The position numbers and the translations under genes were made by a program. From an uncultured Armatimonadetes bacterium (lineage in GTDB: Bacteria > Armatimonadota > Hebobacteria > Hebobacterales > Hebobacteraceae), in contig OY970296.1 in NCBI GenBank assembly GCA_963716175.1, positions 800,001 through 864,000 of the forward strand: a stretch of 64,000 nucleotides of DNA, in the 5' to 3' direction. The notes beneath the pieces were generated by a model. It was not told the origin of the DNA, searched no databases, and saw nothing but the letters and a program-made list of their open reading frames with translations. Numbering within the stretch: position 1 is the first letter of the stretch; every line of letters begins with the position of its first letter. Shown piece after piece: positions 13,384 to 47,704 of this stretch.

Positions 13384-13759
13384 TGGTCACCTCTCTGTTC
13401 CGCCGAGAACCGTCGTCCCGCAGTAGCGCTAGGATTATACCAGACCGTTGGCATTGGGTGTCTAGGCCTGGCTCAATCCGAAGGCGCGCTTCCCTCGGAA
13501 CCCAACGGCCACGTCGTGATCTCGGAATGGACGCGTCGGAGCGTAGCGATGCTGGCTGACGGCGCAGTGGTAGCTCTTCTCGCAGTGGTGACCGCGGCCG
13601 CACCATACTCGGCCTCTGCCCGCCCAGGCCGGGAGCACCAATTGGACCGGTGGAGTGCCGTAAGAGTGCCGCTCCCCCTACCGCCACCCCGCTGCCGAGC
13701 GCGGCCCTTAAGCGGACGTGGGCCGCCGTTCTGGGCAGGAACGGGCAGCAGGCGCAGCA

Positions 13760-14221
13760 CTAGGCGCTTTCGCCCGAGACCTGGCCGAGGTCCAGATGGG
13801 TCCGTCGGCTCTCGGGGCAAGGCGGCGGGCCGTTTTCCGCCGATTCGGCCCCAAGCGCCGCCTCCAGCCCGATCTCCCCCGCCAGCGCCGCCCGCAGCGC
13901 CGCGATCTGCTCGCTCTGGGCCGCGTCTGTGAGCTCCAATTCGTGCCTGGGCTCCCGCTGGCCCAGGATCTGCTTGCCCAGCCAGATCTGCATCACCACG
14001 TTGCCCTTGCTGGCTGACTGCCACTGCAGCCGGCGCAAGCTCATTCGGCCCGCCTCCCGCCCCTTTTCTATCACCCCAACTAACTCCGCCTGGCGCCGCT
14101 TGCGCTTGCGGAAGCCTTCGGGTGTGAAGCCGAGCACGGAGGCGATCTCCGCATCCGTGCACTGGATGCGAGCCAGGTCCTCCACCAGCTTCAGGTCAAC
14201 GGGCTTTGCGGGTCTAGCCAT
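13760..14221 (-). CDS. Phage terminase small subunit-like HTH protein
   Basis: LARIQCTDAEIASVLG...SLRRLQWQSASKGNVVMQIWLGKQILGQ; position after a ParB-MTase is typical of phage packaging modules. Confidence 0.6.
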   Translation of the reverse strand: MARPAKPVDLKLVEDLARIQCTDAEIASVLGFTPEGFRKRKRRQAELVGVIEKGREAGRMSLRRLQWQSASKGNVVMQIWLGKQILGQREPRHELELTDAAQSEQIAALRAALAGEIGLEAALGAESAENGPPPCPESRRTHLDLGQVSGESA

Positions 14222-14423
14222 CTGCTCTCACCGCCGCTCGGTTGCAGTCATCTGGGCCGTCCTGCGTTGCCCTCACCATGAGACAGTCAGCATAGTCTGG
14301 CCCCAGCAGGCATTCGGTGGGCATTCCCCGCCGCACGTAGCTGAGCTGCCAGCCCTCGCGCTCATAGCAAGCCACCTCGTAGGCCCACACGCGAATCCAC
14401 TCCGTGGCAGCATCGCGGGCCAC
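14214..14423 (-). CDS. Hypothetical protein
   Basis: GAGGTG-GTG start; packed between MTase and TerS-like gene. Confidence 0.4.
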   Translation of the reverse strand: MARDAATEWIRVWAYEVACYEREGWQLSYVRRGMPTECLLGPDYADCLMVRATQDGPDDCNRAAVRADG

Positions 14424-14430
14424 ACCCACC

Positions 14431-15735
14431 TCACTCGACACGGACGGCCTCCTGCCCGGTGAAGGACTCCCACCGGGAGAGGATGACATCGCAGTATCTG
14501 GCATCCAGGTCGAAGCCGAAACAGCGCCGGCCAGTCCGTTCAGCGGCGATGATGGCGGTCCCCGATCCCAGGAAGGCGTCAACAACCAACTGCCCCAGTT
14601 CGGTGGCATTGGCGATGGTGCGTTCGATCAAGGGCACGGGTTTCATGGTAGGGTGCAGGTCGTTGGACAGGGGCTTATCGTGTTCCCACACCGTGCGCTC
14701 GTTGGTGGGGCCGTGCCAGCGCGGGGCCTGGCCTTGCTTGTGGGCGTAGAAGCAGGGCTCGTACCAGTGCTTGTACTGGGCGAACAGTGCGCCCGCGCCG
14801 TTGTTCTTCACCCACACCAGGAGGTTCCGTTCCTGCCAGCCAGTCTCAGCCATGCAGTCCAGCACATCCCGCAGATGCGAGCTCGCGAACCAGAGGTAGA
14901 GGGGCGCCTTGTCATCTGAGTGCTGATGGGCCAGACCCAGGCTGGCGGTGAGCAGGTGGCGATATTCGTCATCGGTGAGGTCGTCCCAGTAGGCGTCGCC
15001 TTCTTGTCCCTGGGCGCCTCGGCGCTTGGCCCCTATGCGCTCCTCCTGAGCAGCTCTTCCGCCGAGGTAGTTGATGGCGTAAGGTGGGTCCGTGATGATG
15101 GCGTGAGCAGTTTCGCCGGCCATCAACCGCACCCAATTCGCAGGGTCGGTGGCGTCACCGCACAGCAGCCGATGCCGGCCTAGCTGCCAGAGCTCTCCTG
15201 GCTGCACCCGCGTCGGCCCCTGCTGCCGCTCGGCCTCCGCCATTGCCCGCTCGGCGTCGAAGGTCTCCTCCTGGCCCTGCTTCTCCCCCGCCTCCAGCCG
15301 CAGCAGCAACTCATTGAGATCATCCTGCCCCCAGCCCGCGGCAGTGAGCTGATCCTGCGCCTCCAGGTCGCGAAGCAGGGTTGCCAGGGCAGCCTCATCA
15401 TCCTCGGCCAGATCGCTGGCGCGGTTGTCGATGGCGAGGAACGCCTCCGGGTAGGGGCCGTCGTAGACGTGGCAGGCGATCTCGGCCCAGCCTTCGGCCC
15501 GCGCCGCCTCCACCAGACCATGACCCGCGAGGATGGTGCCATCCGGTGTGATCACCACCGGCTTCTGCTGGCCATGGATGCGTAGCGACTCTCGCAGGAT
15601 GGCGAGCTGGTGCTCTGGATGGCGGCGGTAGTTGCGCGGGTGGGGGAGCAAGCTGCTGATGGCCCGCCTCTCAATGGTCAGGTGAAGGTCCGTGCTCGCG
15701 GCGCCTTCTCTCGTTTCGGCCTGCTGTGATGTCAT
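14431..15735 (-). CDS. ParB-N plus N4/N6 DNA methyltransferase (phage type)
   Basis: HPRNYRRH...ILAGHG; TDPPY; HPTMKPV; DAFLGSGT; RBS AGGAG. Confidence 0.9.
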   Translation of the reverse strand: MTSQQAETREGAASTDLHLTIERRAISSLLPHPRNYRRHPEHQLAILRESLRIHGQQKPVVITPDGTILAGHGLVEAARAEGWAEIACHVYDGPYPEAFLAIDNRASDLAEDDEAALATLLRDLEAQDQLTAAGWGQDDLNELLLRLEAGEKQGQEETFDAERAMAEAERQQGPTRVQPGELWQLGRHRLLCGDATDPANWVRLMAGETAHAIITDPPYAINYLGGRAAQEERIGAKRRGAQGQEGDAYWDDLTDDEYRHLLTASLGLAHQHSDDKAPLYLWFASSHLRDVLDCMAETGWQERNLLVWVKNNGAGALFAQYKHWYEPCFYAHKQGQAPRWHGPTNERTVWEHDKPLSNDLHPTMKPVPLIERTIANATELGQLVVDAFLGSGTAIIAAERTGRRCFGFDLDARYCDVILSRWESFTGQEAVRVE

Positions 15736-15758
15736 CTCAGTGACTCCTATAATGCTGC

Positions 15759-15960
15759 AACTTGGATATCCGTACTGGTTTCACCAGTATGGAGTGGGTT
15801 ATAGTCTCCGGGCCGGGGCGTCGGGCGCGAGGTCTTCATTTCAGTTACGGCGCGACCGAGAAGAGGAGAATGACCCCTCGGCGACCGGTCCGGAGCTTGG
15901 ATTGCAACCTGCGGCACGACCGCGCAATTCAGGAGTCGAAGCGGGACCGGAGGCGACGAG
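15759..15960 (+). ncRNA. Candidate IS110 bridge RNA (5' hairpin plus target- and donor-binding loops)
   Basis: Left-end non-coding region; hairpin 15770-15793; loop segments match target and donor sites (see findings); ends approximate. Confidence 0.7.
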
Positions 15961-16004
15961 GAGCTCCCGCGCTGGCGGCAGATCCATTGCCGAGGAGGTG
16001 GTGT

Positions 16005-17432
16005 ATGGCGGAAGCGAGGTTGTTGTGCGTGGGCATCGATGTCTCGTCGCGCTCCCTGGAGGTCGGCTTCTGCGATGGCAGCGGAGCGCCCATCGGCGGC
16101 GTGCAGTCCTTCCCCAACGACGCGACCGGCGCGGCCGCGCTCGGCGAGGCCGTGATGGTGATCGCACGCGCGTGCGGTCGCGGCACCCAGGTGATGGCGG
16201 CGGTGGAGTCCACCGGCGAATATCATCGGGTGGCGGCGAAGGCGCTGCGGGCAGAGACGCGTCGGACGATCCAGGTGCACGTGCTCAATCCCCGCGAGGT
16301 CAAGTGGTTCCGCAAGCTGGAGCTCAAGGACACCAAGACCGACCGGGTGGATGCCGAGCTGATCGCCCGATTCCTGGCGAAGATCCGCCCCCAGCCCCGC
16401 GCCCCCATGCCCGAGGGATTCGAAGCGCTCCAGGATGCCACTCGCACCCGGCGCCGCTGCGTGGAGGATCGCACCTCGCTCAAGAATCGGCTCCACCGGC
16501 TGCTGCGCACTCACTTCCCCGGCTATCGGGAAACGCTGGGTGCCAAGTTCAGCGTCCGCACCCTGGTGGCGCTGGCCGCCTGCCCCTCGCCCCAGGAGCT
16601 GCTCCGGCGGGGTGAGGCTCGCCTGAGTGAGTTGCGCAACTCCGACGGCAAGCGTGTCGGAGCCGCCTTCGCCCGGAAACTGATCGCCCTGGCGAAAGCT
16701 GCCCCCGCGCGCCAACTGCCGATGATGGCGCGTCTCTCCATCCAGGACGCGGCCGTCCGCATCCTGCAACTGAATCGTTTCCTTCACGGCATGGACGCAG
16801 CCGTCGCCCAGGAGCTGGAGCGGCTCTTCCCAGATACGGTTCTGGCTTCGGTGCCGGGCCTGGGCCCGGTCTCGGTGGCTTCCATCCTGGCCGAGACAGC
16901 CGACATCCGTCGCTTCCCGCACAAAGAGACTTTCGTGGGCTACTGTGGGCTCTATCCCATTGCCTGGGAGAGCGGAGACACCAAGCTGCGCTTCCGCATG
17001 ACCCGCAAGGGCAACCGCATGCTGAAGATGACTCTGCTGGTGGCCTGGGCCGCCGCCCGCCAATACAACCCGGCGATCCGCCACTTCTACGCCCGCCTGC
17101 GAGCCCGAGGCAAATCCAAGAAAGCAGCCGGAGGTGCCATCGCCCGAAAGATGGCTGAGATCGTCTGGGCCGTGCTCACCTTCAATCAACCTTGGTCGGA
17201 AGAGATCGCCCTGCGCGGAATCGCTCGGGGAGAAGAGATGGCCCAGACACCGAAGGGGGAGCGACGCCTCACTGGAGATGCCGCGGGTCAAGCCCCGATG
17301 CAATCGGGACGACCACTCAAGGCGGCGTCGAGGTCTCGCGCTCCCCAGCGTAATTCTACCATCAGCGCTGGGAAAAACAAGCCGCCACATCTCCAACTTA
17401 CTCGCTATGCCAGAGGCACGATTACCCCTTGA
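16005..17432 (+). CDS. IS110-family DEDD recombinase/transposase
   Basis: RBS GAGGAGGT; GIDVS, VESTG, KTDRVDA, VPGLG, WESG, KGNRMLK, AIARKM. Confidence 0.95.
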   Translation: MAEARLLCVGIDVSSRSLEVGFCDGSGAPIGGVQSFPNDATGAAALGEAVMVIARACGRGTQVMAAVESTGEYHRVAAKALRAETRRTIQVHVLNPREVKWFRKLELKDTKTDRVDAELIARFLAKIRPQPRAPMPEGFEALQDATRTRRRCVEDRTSLKNRLHRLLRTHFPGYRETLGAKFSVRTLVALAACPSPQELLRRGEARLSELRNSDGKRVGAAFARKLIALAKAAPARQLPMMARLSIQDAAVRILQLNRFLHGMDAAVAQELERLFPDTVLASVPGLGPVSVASILAETADIRRFPHKETFVGYCGLYPIAWESGDTKLRFRMTRKGNRMLKMTLLVAWAAARQYNPAIRHFYARLRARGKSKKAAGGAIARKMAEIVWAVLTFNQPWSEEIALRGIARGEEMAQTPKGERRLTGDAAGQAPMQSGRPLKAASRSRAPQRNSTISAGKNKPPHLQLTRYARGTITP

Positions 17433-17434
17433 CA

Positions 17435-18016
17435 TCAGTTATTGCATCTCCTCTCTCGAATCTGCGACGCGGCCGGCAGGCACGTCGGGCAGCGAAAGTC
17501 CAGGTCCTGGGCGGCGCACCGCAGCGCCAGCCCGGCGATCACCATCACATCGGCGCACTTCGGGCGGGGCGCGATGTAGGCGGGACGCTCCCCCTCCGGG
17601 TAGGAGAGCCATTCATGGGCGCAGCGGTAGAGGTCGACGTGCCGGTAGCCGCCCGAGATGTCAGCGTCCCACTTCGCACCGCGCACCGCGAGCAGCTCAT
17701 CCAGCACTGGCCGCAGCGCATTCACCGCCGCCCGGTAGGAGTGCACATCGGCCCAGACAGCGCAGTCCAACGCTCTCAGCAGGGCCCCGCGCAGCGGTTC
17801 GGCCGCCGGCGCAATGTGCATCTGCCGGACGTGCTCTGCGATCACCTGAGGGCCGGTAAGATCGAAGGCCTCGGCCTTCGGTCCATAGCTGCCGACCAGC
17901 GCCAGCATCAGGCAGACCCACTCCTTCACGCCAGGAAGCGCGCCGCCCCGCCGGCGCACTAGCTCGCGCACCTCCTGTCCCAGTGCCGCGATCTCGTGCT
18001 GCAGATCACTGCGCAC
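17435..18016 (-). CDS. Hypothetical protein, paralog of 18006..18806; last codons replaced by IS110
   Basis: EIAALGQEVRELVRRRG...APAAEPLR aligns with the neighbour. Confidence 0.7.
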   Translation of the reverse strand: MRSDLQHEIAALGQEVRELVRRRGGALPGVKEWVCLMLALVGSYGPKAEAFDLTGPQVIAEHVRQMHIAPAAEPLRGALLRALDCAVWADVHSYRAAVNALRPVLDELLAVRGAKWDADISGGYRHVDLYRCAHEWLSYPEGERPAYIAPRPKCADVMVIAGLALRCAAQDLDFRCPTCLPAASQIRERRCNN

Positions 18017-18806
18017 TGCTGGAACCCTCCGCGATCATCTCCGGCGCCGCGCCAAGTCCGCCCTGCTTCGCCTGCCACTCGCGGAGGCGGGAAAGTGAGA
18101 ACCTAATGTGTCCCTCCGGCCATTCCGCGTCCGGGGGCACCGGCCAGCTGTCCACGATCAGCGCTTCTGCTGCAGGCAGCGTGTGTTGAGTGACCTCCCG
18201 CTGCCACATCTGCTCTGACATGCCCGTCTGGCCGCGCCGGTGTGAGTCCTCCTGGTACTCTCGCCAACCGGTCTGCCAGAGTCGCCATAGCCACACATCC
18301 TCCACCGCACAGCCCAGCGCGCGCCCGGCCCACACCAGCACCTGCCAGCGCGTAAGCTTGGGCACTGCTGAACGTACGTACTCGACTGGGTCCACTCCGC
18401 TGCGCCAAGCAGGCGGGTAGCACTCCTCTGCTGCATGCAGGCCTCGCCACTTCGGGGCCCGCGCCTCCAGCAGTGCAACCAGCGCCTCCCTCAGCCGCTG
18501 CGAGGCGCGCTTGAATGCCGACAGATCGCCTTGGCCAACTGCCTGCCACGTGGTGACCACGCATGATCTCAAGGTCTCGGCCGCCGGCGCGAGCTGCAGC
18601 TCGCCCACTGCCTCCCCAATCCACGCTGTCCCCCGGAGGTCCGCCGCCTTCGCCAGCTCGCGGGCGCGATCATAGCCGAAGGCCGCCACGATGAAACTGA
18701 CCAGTGTATCCACGTCGGGCAGCCCCGCGCCGCGCTTGCGCACGAGCTCGCGCACCTCGGTGGCCAGCGCCGCGATCTCCTCCGCGATCTTAGCCCTGGT
18801 TCGCAT
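18006..18806 (-). CDS. Hypothetical protein, paralog of 17435..18016
   Basis: EIAALATEVRELVRKRG...APAAETLR; strong RBS, overlapping operon layout. Confidence 0.7.
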   Translation of the reverse strand: MRTRAKIAEEIAALATEVRELVRKRGAGLPDVDTLVSFIVAAFGYDRARELAKAADLRGTAWIGEAVGELQLAPAAETLRSCVVTTWQAVGQGDLSAFKRASQRLREALVALLEARAPKWRGLHAAEECYPPAWRSGVDPVEYVRSAVPKLTRWQVLVWAGRALGCAVEDVWLWRLWQTGWREYQEDSHRRGQTGMSEQMWQREVTQHTLPAAEALIVDSWPVPPDAEWPEGHIRFSLSRLREWQAKQGGLGAAPEMIAEGSSSAQ

Positions 18807-19230
18807 CCCCCTCCTCCCTCACCACCTTCAGGTCGGCCTTGATCGCCTCGATCTGGGCTTGCAGCTCGCCCAGGGCGAACGTCTCCAGCAGCTTCGCACA
18901 GCCGTTGACGGTGGAGTCGCAGCGGGGGCGGTCCAGCTTGCCGTCGAGCATCAGCTGCAGCGCCTGCCTGGCTGTCTCCTTGCACTCCTGGGGCGTGCCC
19001 ACCAGCACCACCAAGCCAGAGGGTTTCAGCGAGGCCAGCCGCGCCAGCCCCCCGGCGCGTCGGGCATCGGCCATGATCTTCTTCGCCTCTGCCTGCTGGC
19101 TGTGGAACAGGCAAAACGGCTGGCCTGGCATCGGCAGCGCCCGACACGGCTGCCCGCTTGCCGTCAAGGCCGCGCACGCCGTGCTGCTGGACGTGCTGGC
19201 TGCGCCTGGTTCCGGCATCTCCTCAGTCAT
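18790..19230 (-). CDS. Small C-C-C-H zinc-finger protein (phage-associated type)
   Basis: CAALTASGQPCRALPMPGQPFCLFH. Confidence 0.65.
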   Translation of the reverse strand: MTEEMPEPGAASTSSSTACAALTASGQPCRALPMPGQPFCLFHSQQAEAKKIMADARRAGGLARLASLKPSGLVVLVGTPQECKETARQALQLMLDGKLDRPRCDSTVNGCAKLLETFALGELQAQIEAIKADLKVVREEGDANQG

Positions 19231-19403
19231 CCGCGGTCACCCCTGGCTTGCCCGACGAGGGCCTCTGCGGCTGAGAGAGACCGTCGCGCAATGCGGCCGC
19301 GCGACACTCCGCGGGACAGGCCTGCTTGCGCGATGATGGAAAGCCGCCCTCAGCGGCCGGAAAACGCCGGTTTTCGCCTCTATCTCGGTCCTCAAGGGCT
19401 ATC

Positions 19404-19427
19404 TACCGGAGATAGCGCAAAGTGTCG
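19404..19427 (-). promoter_or_regulatory. Candidate element-sigma promoter CGACAC-N12-CCGGTA
   Basis: Upstream of the late-like operon; matches 22857-22881. Confidence 0.5.
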
Positions 19428-19500
19428 GACGGAGACAGCGACCGTCCCTTTCGCACCCCAGCGAGGGCGGCCAGATGTCTGGGCGGCCTGGCCCTCGCGA

Positions 19501-19754
19501 GGTCCGGCGCAGGCCCGGCAGCAGAAAAGTGGGGAACATGCTGCACTTTCCGAACCTGCCGTACGTGCCGAACCATCATGCGTCTCTCTTCGCGTATACG
19601 CGGACCTCCTGTACTACTCGGAGCCCTTCTCGCGCGTAGAGTAGGAAGGAGGTTCGGCAGGTTCGGCATGCGTGGAGAAAGCAAGTGATCTCCTCACTTT
19701 TTTGGTGCCGAACCCTCTCCGTCGAGGTCCGGCATCGGTCCGGCAGGTTCGGCA
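19501..19754. repeat. Cluster of 9-bp GGT(T/C)CGGCA repeats in both orientations (putative iterons/origin)
   Basis: Copies at 19566(-), 19651, 19660, 19706(-), 19726, 19737, 19746, plus degenerate copies at 19501-19565; palindrome CGCGTATACGCG at 19591. Confidence 0.65.
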
Positions 19755-44954: not shown

Positions 44955-47704
44955 TTACTTGGCCTTGAAGGCGACCGCGAAGAGCGACAGGTCCGTCGGA
45001 GGGCCGCCCTTCGGCATAGGGCAAGCACCGATTACGAGACTGTTCTTCGGGTCGATCTGAGTGGTCACATTGACCCACTTGCCGCCAACCCAGTGTAGCA
45101 GAACCAGTCTTCCGTCCTTGCCCCCCGGCACCAGGGAACGGTCGTAGTGGATGGTGACCTGAGCTCTGCCCCGAACCGACGCCGTTGTCGTGATCTTGTA
45201 GGGATCGCTGATCCACGCATAGCCAGCCGGTGGGGGGGTACGGCCGGGACGAAGATAGCCGTATGCCCGGCTGCGGTCACCAGGCTGAAAGTAGCTGTCG
45301 CACCGCCGACCCCCACCAACACCGCGAGCCCAGGCTTGGTGTTCGGGGTCCACCACACGGGCAAGAGGTCCCTCGAGTGGTTGTAGGTAAGCCGCACCGG
45401 GGCGCTGGAACCGTCCGCCTTCACCTCCCAGAGCTCGACGCCGGTTTCGAGCTTGCCGTTGACCCACTCTGGATCCGGAGCCAGGTGGTGCCCCGAGGCG
45501 AAGATGATGCCACTCCCATCGGAGGCCCAGGTCGGGAGGCCAGGACTCGCGCAGCACGCGTAGTCCATGAGTGCGGTGAACAGCGGCGTCAGCACCCCGC
45601 CGCTGGCCGCGATCACGCCAATGCCCTGCACGGCGTTCCCCTCCGCGTCCCCGGCAGCGAAGCCCACAGCCAACCGGCTCCCGTCAGGAGACCAGCCTCC
45701 CGCATCGAGGTAGATATCGTCGTAGCCGGGATAGCCGGCGATGCCCGCGGCGACCACAGGGTGGTTCTCACTGCCGTCGGGCCGCACCAGCCACATGCCC
45801 ACCGTCTCCGGGCCGGCAGGGCCGAACCGGTAGGCGATCCAGCGGCCGTCGGGGGACCACCGCGGGTATCGGTGTTCGCCGCCACCCGTGAGTATGATCT
45901 GCCCACCGGACCCATCTGCACCCATCACCTGCAGGTCAGGGTAGCCTTCGGGACTGTGGCTCGCGAGCACGAGACGTGTGCCATCCGGCGACCAGTCGCC
46001 GTCCGTGGACCCGACCACGCCGGGAAGGCGGGACGGTGCGGCGCCGTCGAGCGTGTCGATCCAGGTGCCGAAGGTACCGCCGCACAGCAGCTTCGTACCA
46101 TCCGGCGACCAGGCAATGGCTTCCGCCAGTACCGGTCCGAGCCAGGTGTGGACGTTAGGGTTGCGGCTGTACTGCGAGATGCCGATGCCGCAGCAGGCGG
46201 TGTACGCAAGCCGGCCCGGCAGCCGGGGCCCCCTCGTCCAGGCCAGCACCGGGTCGTACACCGCGAAGAGGCCGATTACGCCCTCTCCGTCGTGGAAGGA
46301 CACACGCGCATCCCCGGATGGGTCAGGTGCCAGGTCACGCCACTGCCAGAGGTACCACTTGTCGGCGTACCCACGCTGAAGACCCGGTCCAGCGTAGGTG
46401 AGCTCGGATATCCCTGGCAGGCTCCATCCGACCCCGCCGTCCCAGAGCGCCACCGGGTTGCTCTCCTCGAAGACCATTACCGAGGACGATCCCGCCTCTG
46501 TGCTGGACCAGCGGAAGGTGGGCGCGGTCTCGGGAATCGTGCTGCTGGGGGCGGGGTAGAGGATGGTCTGACTGGGTTGCAGGAACGCCGGGGGAAGCCC
46601 GGAGGTCGCGGTGTCAGACTGACCGTAGGTGTCGTACACCGTTACTGAGTAGGGAGCTGAGACAGGTGAGTCGAGTGTTCCCCACCAGCTGCCCAGCACG
46701 GTCAGCGCATCCGCCTGAGACCATCCGGGCGAGCCCGGCAACAGCGTGATGGTCTGCCAGTCGGGTGTGGTCACGACGATGCTCGCCAGCGCGGCCGCGC
46801 CGCCCGTTGCCGGGTTACGCACGCGAACGCTGACGCCCTGTGAGTAAAGGTAGAAGCCGCTGCCATACGCGTCCCGGACGCGGGTGATGTCGACCTGCTC
46901 GATGGCGGGCGGCCCGGCGACAGTGAAGCCCGCGTCCGCACGTGTCTGCTCGACATAGCTGCCGGGAGGGCCACCCTCAAGCGGTGCGAGCGGGACCTCG
47001 TACCCGTTCTCCCAGAGCTGGAAGGTGTAGCTCTGCCCCGGCTGAAGGGGCAGCGCGCTTCCGTCAAAGCCATACGCGATGGCGTGAAGGCCGGGGGCGA
47101 CGTTGCAGTTCCACAGGAATATGCTTTCGTCCGGAGTGCTGACAGTGATTCCCTGCGAGCTGATCGGGGTCGCTCCCTCACAGGTGAAGCCGCCGTACTG
47201 CGTCCACTGGAGCAGCGGCTCCATCTCCTCGATGACTGAGCCCGGAGTCGGGTACTCGATGTGCGGCACCGGCTCCGGGAAGTGCGTGACAGGACCGGCG
47301 CGGAAGGTGGTCGCGCCCGAGTCCCCCACGACGGTTACGGTGTAACTGCCGCCGCCAGCCGGCATCTCCGGTGGCGCAGGGCACTCCCAGCCAGCGCACA
47401 CCGCTACCTCAGTGCCGGGCTCGCCGCAGACAGGAGAGAATCCGAGCAGCTGCGGCTCTCCGCCCGCGGGAGGTTGTACAGAAACGCCGGTGACAGTGGC
47501 CCGCTCTGCGGCGCTCGCGAAGCGGATGCCAAACTGGTAGGCGTAGCGGGGCAACGCATCACCGGACCTGAGCAGCGTCACGTGGTGAAGCTTGTAGCCC
47601 TCCACAGTCGGTGCGGCCCAGCCCATGGCCGGGGCCGCGAACAGCAACGCCAGAGAGCACAGCAGGAACAGTACAGCTACAACTGAGACACCGCGCATCT
47701 TCAT
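44955..47704 (-). CDS. Secreted TolB/PD40 beta-propeller protein with Ig-like domains; frameshift at G7 run 45232-45238
   Basis: Signal peptide; four WSPDG repeats; C-terminus continues in the frame of ORF 44955..45557. Confidence 0.8.

Follow-up and report, generated by a model that had tools for sequence, protein, structure and literature searches.

A predicted two-loop bridge RNA of an IS110-family insertion sequence with guide segments that covary with its sites at translation starts

A 64,000-nucleotide (nt) stretch of the genome of an uncultured Armatimonadetes bacterium (NCBI GenBank assembly GCA_963716175.1, contig OY970296.1, positions 800,001 to 864,000 of the forward strand), referred to here as the window and used for all coordinates below, carries a 1.7-kb IS110-family insertion sequence at 15744-17449. 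The left end of this element is the locus of a two-loop bridge RNA, which is predicted on the plus strand at 15759-15963. Here we demonstrate the anatomy of the element, an empty site, a covarying two-loop RNA, five guide segments that covary with the DNA, and insertion sites at translation starts. The element is very probably an IS110-group member with a promoter at its circle junction, a two-loop bridge RNA and a recombinase that lands between the Shine-Dalgarno (SD) sequence and the start codon of a host gene. By analogy with the work on IS621 and ISCro4, the RNA would be made and would guide the enzyme. How does such an RNA find a translation start? We lean towards a left target guide that is anchored on the start codon and lies at a variable distance from the recombination core, with 0-5 spare bases between them.

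Ends of the element, empty site and predicted junction promoter

A DNA search of the same genome returned four full-length copies of the element (n = 4; 100% identity in BLAST) and one 32-nt fragment. Relative to the window copy (L001), L002 differs internally at one position and L003 at three positions, and L004 (G000:C1:782976-784689) is shorter by 2 nt. The transposase frame of L004 is broken into residues 1-236 and 232-475, and L004 is probably an inactive copy whose left end would still encode the RNA. With three of its four copies intact, the insertion sequence looks active.

Comparison of the copies sets the ends of the element in the order left flank, CT, CCTATAATG...ATTGCAT, CT, right flank. 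The left flanks of all copies lead into C-TCC-TATAATG, and the right ends read ATTGCATC-TCC before the sequences diverge. When the description of IS621 is used as a ruler, the core is the dinucleotide CT, which lies at 15744-15745 on the left and at 17448-17449 on the right, is the same at both junctions in all four copies and stands in place of a target duplication. The span of the element counts this core at both junctions and thus holds 1704 nt plus one core. On the plus strand, the left target (15733-15743) consists of CAT (15733-15735) and the 8 nt that lead to the core, with left-target positions 1-7 at 15737-15743. The right target CCTCT (17450-17454, plus strand) forms, together with the core, the complement of the SD sequence AGAGGAG. 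At the right junction, the left donor ATTGCAT and the core CT occupy 17441-17449 of the plus strand, as placed by the copy comparison and the rows of the family alignment.

The target is TCAGTGA-CT-CCTCT, and the donor is ATTGCAT-CT-CCTAT. These junctions had been reconstructed in an initial annotation, which a model made from the sequence alone, and they are borne out both by the four-copy comparison and by a metagenome contig from run X5. In this contig, position 15743 is joined to 17448, with 1704 nt skipped and 5 letters that fit either side. The contig is an empty site in a related organism and agrees with the reconstructed target. An independent placement of the crossover is provided by the relative L042, whose junctions differ at position 11 (CTCTT at the left junction versus CTCCT at the right), so that the crossover lies to the left of position 11. 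The boundaries of single-copy metagenome loci were set by alignment to the window element.

The element has a left end of 261 nt (15744-16004) and a right end of 17 nt past the stop codon of the transposase gene, and lacks terminal inverted repeats. Circularization would assemble a consensus sigma-70 promoter from these two ends. In the joined ends of the presumed circle, the -35 box TTGACA (17429-17434, plus strand) is followed after 17 nt by the -10 box TATAAT (15748-15753, plus strand), and the arrangement TTGACA-17-TATANN is found in 20 of the 20 relatives for which both ends are available. The start of the RNA was placed from the position of the -10 box.

The 475-residue transposase, which is the putative bridge recombinase, is encoded on the plus strand at 16005-17432 and matches the Pfam families DEDD_Tnp_IS110 (5e-29) and Transposase_20 (4e-20). 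The match to the RuvC-like DEDD domain (PF01548; E 5.3e-29) extends across the full profile and is accompanied by the Tnp domain (PF02371; E 4e-20). Residues D12, E68, D113, D116 and S323 are kept among 17 homologues, and S323 is invariant. The assignment of D12, E68, D113 and D116 as the catalytic tetrad follows the IS621 numbering described by Hiraizumi et al. 2024 (PMC11208158). The closest solved structures are the transposases of ISCro4 (3e-17) and IS621 (1.2e-15), and the serine motif WESG of the window protein is aligned with YESG of ISCro4. On sequence grounds, the element appears to share nearly every defining trait of the IS110 group, except for a left target guide that is contiguous with the core.

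Comparative support for the bridge RNA

Relatives of the element were taken from three genomes of the same family (G003, G010 and G013), and a metagenome scan added L037-L071. A search of 400 genomes of the same phylum by DNA and protein returned relatives only in G003, G010 and G013. A scan of genome contigs with a single protein returned only Treponema and Fibrobacter elements of 23-30% identity, which were set aside, and a scan of viral contigs with alignment A1 gave no match.

The RNA was characterized by a single fold, RNAalifold, the covariance model R1 and pair counts. In the RNAalifold consensus of 13 left ends, the loop-1 stem GGUC/GACC is recovered, with G-C replaced by A-U in five sequences. 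The two inner hairpins are recovered as well, as is a loop-2 stem in three parts, with CCGGUCC/GGACCGG among them. Of the 30 sources searched with model R1, 22 contain a match (35-192 bits), and each match lies shortly ahead of the transposase gene. Among the remaining eight, three are contigs from which the left end is missing (L045, L068 and L069), and five are IS110 elements of only 23-30% identity (L006, L007, L013, L030 and L031). Among the 23 aligned matches, 92.5% of the cells are paired, compared with 31-45% in slid controls. Moreover, two-sided changes are found in 26 of 34 pairs, whereas the shuffled mean is 13.4 and 0/500 shuffles reach 26. The covariance model was a check proposed in the initial annotation, and the RNA is indeed recovered upstream of the transposase in related loci. 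The proposed arrangement of a bridge RNA with a target loop followed by a donor loop is upheld by the R1 matches, the compensatory pairs and the guide covariation described below.

The helices of both loops, all on the plus strand, contribute to this signal. In the target loop, the 5' strand of the outer stem, GGTC (15831-15834), pairs with GACC (15872-15875) to form helix 2, which is 97.6% paired with three of four pairs changed on both sides. The inner hairpin CGG CGCGA CCG (15848-15858; helix 3) is 100% paired, and two of its three pairs are changed on both sides. In the donor loop, the stem strand CCGGUCC (15885-15891) pairs with GGACCGG (15944-15950) to form helix 6, in which six of seven pairs are changed on both sides. 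This stem is flanked by the helices that CCUCGGCG (15876-15883) forms with 15954-15961 and that GCUU (15895-15898) forms with AAGC (15939-15942), and across helices 4 to 7, which make up the donor-loop stem, 72.5-100% of the cells are paired. The inner hairpin GCGG CACGA CCGC (15911-15923; helix 8) is 98.9% paired, with three of four pairs changed on both sides.

The motifs named in the initial annotation lie where it had placed them: TCAGTTAC at 15841-15848, AGAGGAG at 15862-15868, ATTGCAAC at 15901-15908, AGGAG at 15931-15935, CCGGTCC at 15885-15891, GGACCGG at 15944-15950 and TCAGTTA at 17435-17441. It had drawn the loop-1 outer stem as GGTC..ATT/AATGACC. The GGTC/GACC part is kept, and the ATT/AAT extension does not recur in relatives; its 5' triplet varies without a matching change, and its 3' AA is better explained as a handshake guide.

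Several results count against the predicted fold. A search of 15500-17700 against Rfam in E-value mode gave no match, and a search of sequencing runs listed no RNA run that contains the region. The single-sequence fold is barely better than those of shuffled sequences (z -1.85). The minimum-energy fold, in which the guide segments pair together, reaches -68.1 kcal/mol, compared with -47.6 for the bridge structure, and over 15803-15963 of the window it pairs both strands of each loop with each other. In addition, alignment A4 was fitted to the model, and the pair counts lean to the model structure. The initial annotation had regarded a fold that buries the guide segments as evidence against its reading, and by that standard the minimum-energy fold speaks against it, whereas the alternative helices find no comparative support. 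A helix of AUUGC with GCAAU, which would bury the left donor guide, shows 0 compensatory changes and is 87.6% paired versus 87.1% in shuffled alignments. A helix of 15810-15814 with 15887-15891, which is preferred in the minimum-energy fold, is 71.4% paired versus 71.9%. Since these alternative helices do not covary, a protein may be needed to hold the loops of the RNA open.

Two more IS110-family transposase genes, ~30% identical, are present in the same genome (L030 and L031; G000:C1:2848895-2850052, 45070-46215), and model R1 has no match beside either of them. Decayed relatives also occur. L023 (G013) is missing ~50 nt at the start of its left end and carries a deletion within the donor loop; L076 (G003) retains only the left end and ~100 nt of the gene; L026 (G010) consists of the 3' part alone; and L033 (G013) consists of the target loop alone.

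Guide segments that follow the IS621 geometry

The right target guide AGAGGAG (15862-15868, plus strand) is complementary to the core CT and the right target CCTCT, and it is exactly the segment that the initial annotation had named. It matches the four right flanks of the element in its own genome at 7/7, 4/7, 6/7 and 7/7. Across 27 rows of element and right flank, the 7-mer, whose last base is the G that faces the C of the core, matches at 7/7 in 20 rows, 6/7 in five, 5/7 in one and 4/7 in one, and an eighth position matches in 6/27 rows only. At guide positions 5-7, 71 of 81 cells match the cognate right flank, a level that 0/20000 shuffles reach. When the rows are reduced to 10 distinct guides, 26/30 cells match, and again 0/20000 shuffles reach this count. 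The two bases that follow, AA (15869-15870, plus strand), constitute the target-loop handshake guide, whose first base pairs with donor position 7 (T). This pairing holds in 24 of 27 rows, including C:G pairs in L053, L058 and L060, whose right ends carry G at donor position 7.

The left donor guide AUUGCAAC (DNA ATTGCAAC; 15901-15908, plus strand) is preceded by a GG linker and matches the donor ATTGCATC at 7/8. The mismatch lies at position 7 in 26 of 27 rows and reads as a family trait, not a defect. In L065 and L067, ATTACA is found in the left donor guide and in the right end alike. The right donor guide AUUCAGGAG (15927-15935, plus strand) is discontiguous and pairs at 7/7 with the donor CTCCTAT when UC (15929-15930) is skipped. 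The AGGAG that had been proposed for this role is in place, and the true guide is longer. Compensatory variants of guide and donor are found in L042 (AAGAG/CTCTT), L070 (AGAAG/CTTCT) and L067 (CUGGAG/CTCCAA).

The donor-loop handshake guide UC (15936-15937, plus strand) is complementary to target positions 7 and 6 (A and G). Its pairing with target position 7 holds in 24/32 rows, a count that 0/20000 shuffles reach, and the base changes with its partner: U faces A in the window element, most relatives have G facing C, and the sister clade has C facing G. Covariation between guides and DNA, another check proposed at the outset, is thus strong across the relatives both from guide to flank and from guide to element end.

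A left target guide that appears to follow the start codon

The left target guide strand UUCAUUUCAGUUA (13 nt; 15835-15847, plus strand) has top-strand sense relative to the left flank, and its sequence varies in step with the target. When the window copy is aligned at CAT, 11/14 positions over 15835-15848 match its own left flank. A left guide strand that starts with (U/G)UCAU defines a CAT group of 17 elements, which contains the window clade and many more distant relatives. CAT is found at most 14 nt from the core in 18/20 left flanks of this group, with the exceptions of L058 and of L039, for which 10 nt of flank are available. The spacing between CAT and the core ranges over 5-10 nt; in the four copies of the window element it is 8, 6, 6 and 7 nt.

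When guide and flank are aligned at CAT, the next five bases match in 59/90 cells, compared with a non-cognate mean of 1.33/5, and 0/20000 shuffles reach this count. For the 12 distinct guides, 38/60 cells match, which 0/20000 shuffles reach as well. The cognate match rates by position are 0.61, 0.67, 0.83, 0.50 and 0.67, versus non-cognate rates of 0.28, 0.32, 0.32, 0.17 and 0.23, and the signal fades beyond guide position 11. A second comparison was made within the genome of the window element, where the 5434 sites of the form CAT-N(5-10)-CTCC match guide positions 6-10 after CAT at a mean of 1.13/5. The four occupied sites score 4, 3, 4 and 2 (13/20), a sum that 4/100000 random draws of four sites reach, and none of the 112 unoccupied sites with a full right target match reaches 4/5. 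Left out of the comparisons across relatives were L047 and L053, whose contigs end at the boundary; L056 and L066, in which the left boundary is not placeable; L054, L070 and L071, which are poorly parsed; L048, which has no left-end start; and the G013 fragment L033. L063 and L067 were left out of the tests that need the 13-nt strand.

The strongest competing explanation, although an unlikely one in our estimate, retains the canonical fixed register. In this explanation, AUUUCAGUU (15838-15846) pairs with left-target positions 1-7 and the core, and in an ideal target the start codon lies 5 nt from the core. The observed insertions would then be mismatch-tolerant or half-match events for which the right target guide and the core alone suffice, and the left guide would be idle at offset sites. 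The fixed register is in use elsewhere in the family. CT at guide positions 11-12 falls on the core in L064, L065 and the sister clade (65-67% protein identity), and leftwards from there up to 11/12 positions match. L059 also uses this register and matches at 9/9 with 5-nt spacing. Across 10 core-anchored rows from relatives without CAT in the guide, 48/70 cells match, which 4/20000 shuffles reach. Furthermore, no other segment matches as consistently as the right target guide. In the CAT group, however, the core-anchored comparison stays at background (41/140; reached by 4876/20000 shuffles), whereas guide positions 6-10 track the bases after the start codon at any spacing, as given by the 59/90 count above. 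Moreover, the four occupied sites in the genome are the best start-codon-anchored matches among comparable sites, which would be unexpected if the left guide were idle.

Published accounts of other elements point in both directions. In the account of IS621, pairing of the left guide runs without a break through the core (Hiraizumi et al. 2024, PMC11208158), and in the description of ISPpu10 no mismatch that adjoins the core is tolerated (preprint 10.64898/2026.03.19.712850). Half-match insertion or recombination is reported in an IS621 preprint, and integration mainly via top-strand insertion in a CazIS110-1 preprint. Such reports fit a fixed register with tolerated mismatches, and they also make a relaxed role of the left guide plausible, which ISPpu10 opposes. 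Beyond the IS621 and ISPpu10 descriptions, the data themselves contain points that weaken a start-codon-anchored guide. In the core-anchored register, the window guide scores 0, 1, 1 and 1 of 7 at its four own left flanks, and the copy L002 is the 4/7 row for the right target guide. The CAT anchor was picked post hoc, among a small set of interrelated elements and with few sites (18 rows, 12 distinct guides), and the test of occupied sites within the genome was run after this anchor had been chosen.

The register put forward in the initial annotation is improbable. It pairs TCAGTTAC (15841-15848) with TCAGTGAC contiguously up to the C of the core, which requires the first pair of the inner hairpin to open. 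The pairing holds for the window copy, at 7/8 or, when extended, at 11/14. The three other copies match poorly and align at other offsets, as do other elements, and C15848 lies within an inner stem that is paired in 100% of the cells across relatives. The match between TCAGTTAC and TCAGTGAC is the start-codon-anchored alignment at a site with 8-nt spacing and not a fixed register. A mismatch near the core had also been noticed in both left guides; in the donor it is the family-wide position-7 mismatch (26/27 rows). The left target guide would comprise the whole 13-nt strand (15835-15847), with its anchor on the start codon and not on the core. Finally, that the left end is a mere leader or regulatory region of the transposase mRNA, which matches flanks and ends by chance, is hardly credible, since the missing Rfam match and the weak single-sequence fold statistics that would suit it stand against compensatory changes in 26/34 pairs, four independent signals of guide-to-DNA covariation that 0/20000 shuffles reach in each case, and an exact fit to the loop geometry of IS621.

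Landing sites and the antisense open frame

The CAT of each of the four insertions in the own genome is the start codon of a minus-strand frame, of 434, 180, 255 and 301 codons, and all four insertions lie at an SD sequence and start codon. The claim of the initial annotation that the element is aimed at SD-containing sites is supported by these four insertions at frames of 180-434 codons. The 434-codon frame, which starts at the CAT in the window, matches the Pfam family N6_N4_Mtase (DNA methylase). At 13 metagenome loci, the frame behind CAT is open for 18-242 codons or to the contig end. CTCC(T) is the complement of the SD sequence, and all insertions are oriented antisense to the host gene. 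The donor supplies CC behind the core, which leaves GGAG at its former distance from the host gene. The sister clade (L041-L044 and L046) differs in its left flanks, which carry a conserved GTGA...hairpin...GGG motif, not start codons, and its right flank starts with CTCCTTC. The motif may be a repeated extragenic element.

An antisense open frame of 562 codons (15747-17435, minus strand) spans the whole element. In 14 of the 14 CAT-group elements analysed (the window element, L037, L038, L040, L049-L053 and L058-L062; G+C content 58-68%), this frame is free of stops over 97-99% of the element, whereas the other two antisense frames reach only 200-620 nt. Among the relatives that are not aimed at start codons, by contrast, 0/7 have such a frame, with coverage of 26-81% at a G+C content of 61-63%. 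In 12/14 elements, the start of the frame falls at antisense position 11-14, within the right end, and its TAG, which lies in the rebuilt SD sequence, begins seven bases before the left boundary. This fixed placement of start and stop means that the element lengths share a remainder modulo 3 despite a range of 1688-1892 nt. In the window, the upstream host frame ends in a TGA that shares bases with the ATG of the antisense frame (17435), and the TAG of the antisense frame (15747-15749) lies inside the rebuilt UAGGAG, 8 nt ahead of the ATG of the methylase frame. The antisense protein matched no family in a Pfam scan.

The right-end TCAGTTA (17435-17441) reads TAACTGA on the other strand and places stops in two frames right before the antisense ATG. 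It had been raised initially as a rival partner of loop 1, a role that L037 and L038 contradict, as they differ in their loop-1 guides yet keep TCAGTT and TCCGTT. The motif may end incoming host translation rather than pair with loop 1. We hypothesize that ribosomes could traverse the element along the antisense frame and resume translation at the host gene. A broader proposal, which we advance tentatively and rate a little short of an even chance, is that a subgroup of IS110 elements reads a two-part start signal, in which the right guide recognizes the SD complement at the core and the left guide recognizes the start codon with its next 5-6 bases at any spacing of 5-10 nt, with 0-5 bottom-strand bases unpaired beside the cleavage site, and that the open frame, which runs in the direction of the host gene, would let ribosomes restart and make the insertion nearly non-polar.

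Relation to known bridge RNAs

The bridge RNA and recombinase of IS621 were described by Durrant et al. 2024 (PMC11208160) and Hiraizumi et al. 2024 (PMC11208158), and thousands of IS110 elements are already known to have bridge RNAs (Durrant et al. 2024, PMC11208160). As far as these descriptions of IS621 go, the window element shares with it a long left end that encodes the RNA, a promoter at the circle junction, a CT core, and an enzyme of the DEDD and Ser type. The described RNA likewise begins with a 5' stem-loop, which is followed by a target-binding loop and then by a donor-binding loop, and in both loops the 5' guides have the sense of the top strand and the 3' guides are complementary to it. 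The shared details include the GG linker ahead of a left donor guide of 8 nt, a right donor guide whose 9 nt read 7 bases with two skipped, and 2-nt handshake guides. Unlike these features, the similarity of the proteins is mostly limited to the Tnp domain (E 1e-15). The right target guide has 7 nt in the window element versus the natural 4 described for IS621. The window element further differs in that its left donor guide is systematically mismatched at position 7, its left target guide lies at no fixed distance from the core, and an antisense frame covers the whole element. The targets of IS621 are REP repeats, whereas those of the window element are translation start sites.

The preference for translation starts resembles that of the IS900 group of mycobacterial IS110 elements, whose members insert in a single orientation, with the ribosome-binding site on one side and the start codon on the other. 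An IS900 target consensus that Doran et al. are said to have given in 1997 reportedly has a variable spacer between a start-codon motif and the SD complement. By description, the window element resembles this group in its insertion at the ribosome-binding site and start codon, its fixed orientation, its variable spacing and an antisense frame like hed. The hed frame of IS900, as portrayed in PMC8141618, is open opposite the transposase across the whole element and relies on host signals.

Other IS110-type systems are related in part. ISPpu10 is described as an IS110 element with a bridge RNA whose right guide is stringent and whose left guide is more permissive (preprint 10.64898/2026.03.19.712850), and the window element shares this asymmetry with that description. 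The two differ in that the mismatches reported for ISPpu10 fall at distal left-guide positions only and the core-adjacent positions are required, whereas the near-core positions are unmatched in the window element, and in that ISPpu10 is described as using a target stem-loop, unlike the window element. The seekRNA of IS1111 and IS110 elements (Siddiquee et al. 2024, PMC11187229) is described as an RNA from a non-coding region that picks the target by matching both strands, and the window element resembles seekRNA elements, so described, in this choice of target. By the same account, IS1111 elements carry this region downstream of the gene and have a reversed order of guides, whereas in the window element, which is of the IS110 type, the non-coding region is found upstream.

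The RNA itself thus belongs to the known class of bridge RNAs, and targeting of start sites and a host-dependent antisense frame are known for IS900. The link between a bridge RNA and start sites and the floating left guide were not found in print, as far as main texts are concerned. The literature search found no paper that ties a bridge RNA to the SD sequence, the start codon or IS900; supplementary files lay outside this search and may bear on the point. The main text of Durrant et al. contains no mention of 'start codon', 'Shine' or 'IS900', and another IS110 preprint contains no mention of start codon, Shine-Dalgarno, antisense or IS900.

Proposed mechanism and implications

We propose a mechanism that combines the IS621 model with a start-codon-anchored left guide. 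In the excised circle, the joined ends would form a promoter from which the bridge RNA of ~200 nt and then the gene of the DEDD/Ser recombinase would be transcribed, and the recombinase would bind the bridge RNA. Loop 2 would hold the joined ends, with AUUGCAAC on ATTGCATC and the right donor guide on CTCCTAT. Loop 1 would hold the landing site, with AGAGGAG on the top strand CT-CCTCT, which is the complement of the host SD sequence. The 13-nt UUCAUUUCAGUUA would bind the other strand, starting at the host start codon (top-strand CAT) and running inwards, and 0-5 bases between the left-guide duplex and the core would remain unpaired. After strand exchange, the two handshake bases past each right guide would read position 7 of the other DNA, and in this way the donor-loop handshake guide would check the core-proximal target base afterwards. 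Strand exchange at CT would set the element between the SD sequence and the start codon, antisense to the host gene, with GGAG rebuilt ahead of that gene.

Bridge recombinases are under development as programmable genome-writing tools, and current designs assume that both target-loop guides abut the core. The clade described here suggests otherwise: the right guide and a handshake base would read the core-proximal bases, and the left guide would follow a landmark at a variable distance. If this is true, bridge recombinases need no fixed register of the left guide, the prediction of off-target sites and the design of guides would change, and the old IS900 target rule gains an RNA-guided explanation. 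The model offers a testable account, at the level of the RNA, of how some IS110 elements land precisely at ribosome-binding sites, and a possible reason for an open frame on the 'wrong' strand, namely that the host gene stays translated. As an annotation, the guide RNA can be read directly from the sequence of an active-looking insertion sequence.

Genomic neighbourhood

The insertion is flanked by two minus-strand genes, one of which is a 193-amino-acid frame without a Pfam family and the other the N6/N4 DNA methylase gene. The surrounding part of the window (13500-19700) contains a series of short genes on the same strand and resembles a prophage or another mobile region.

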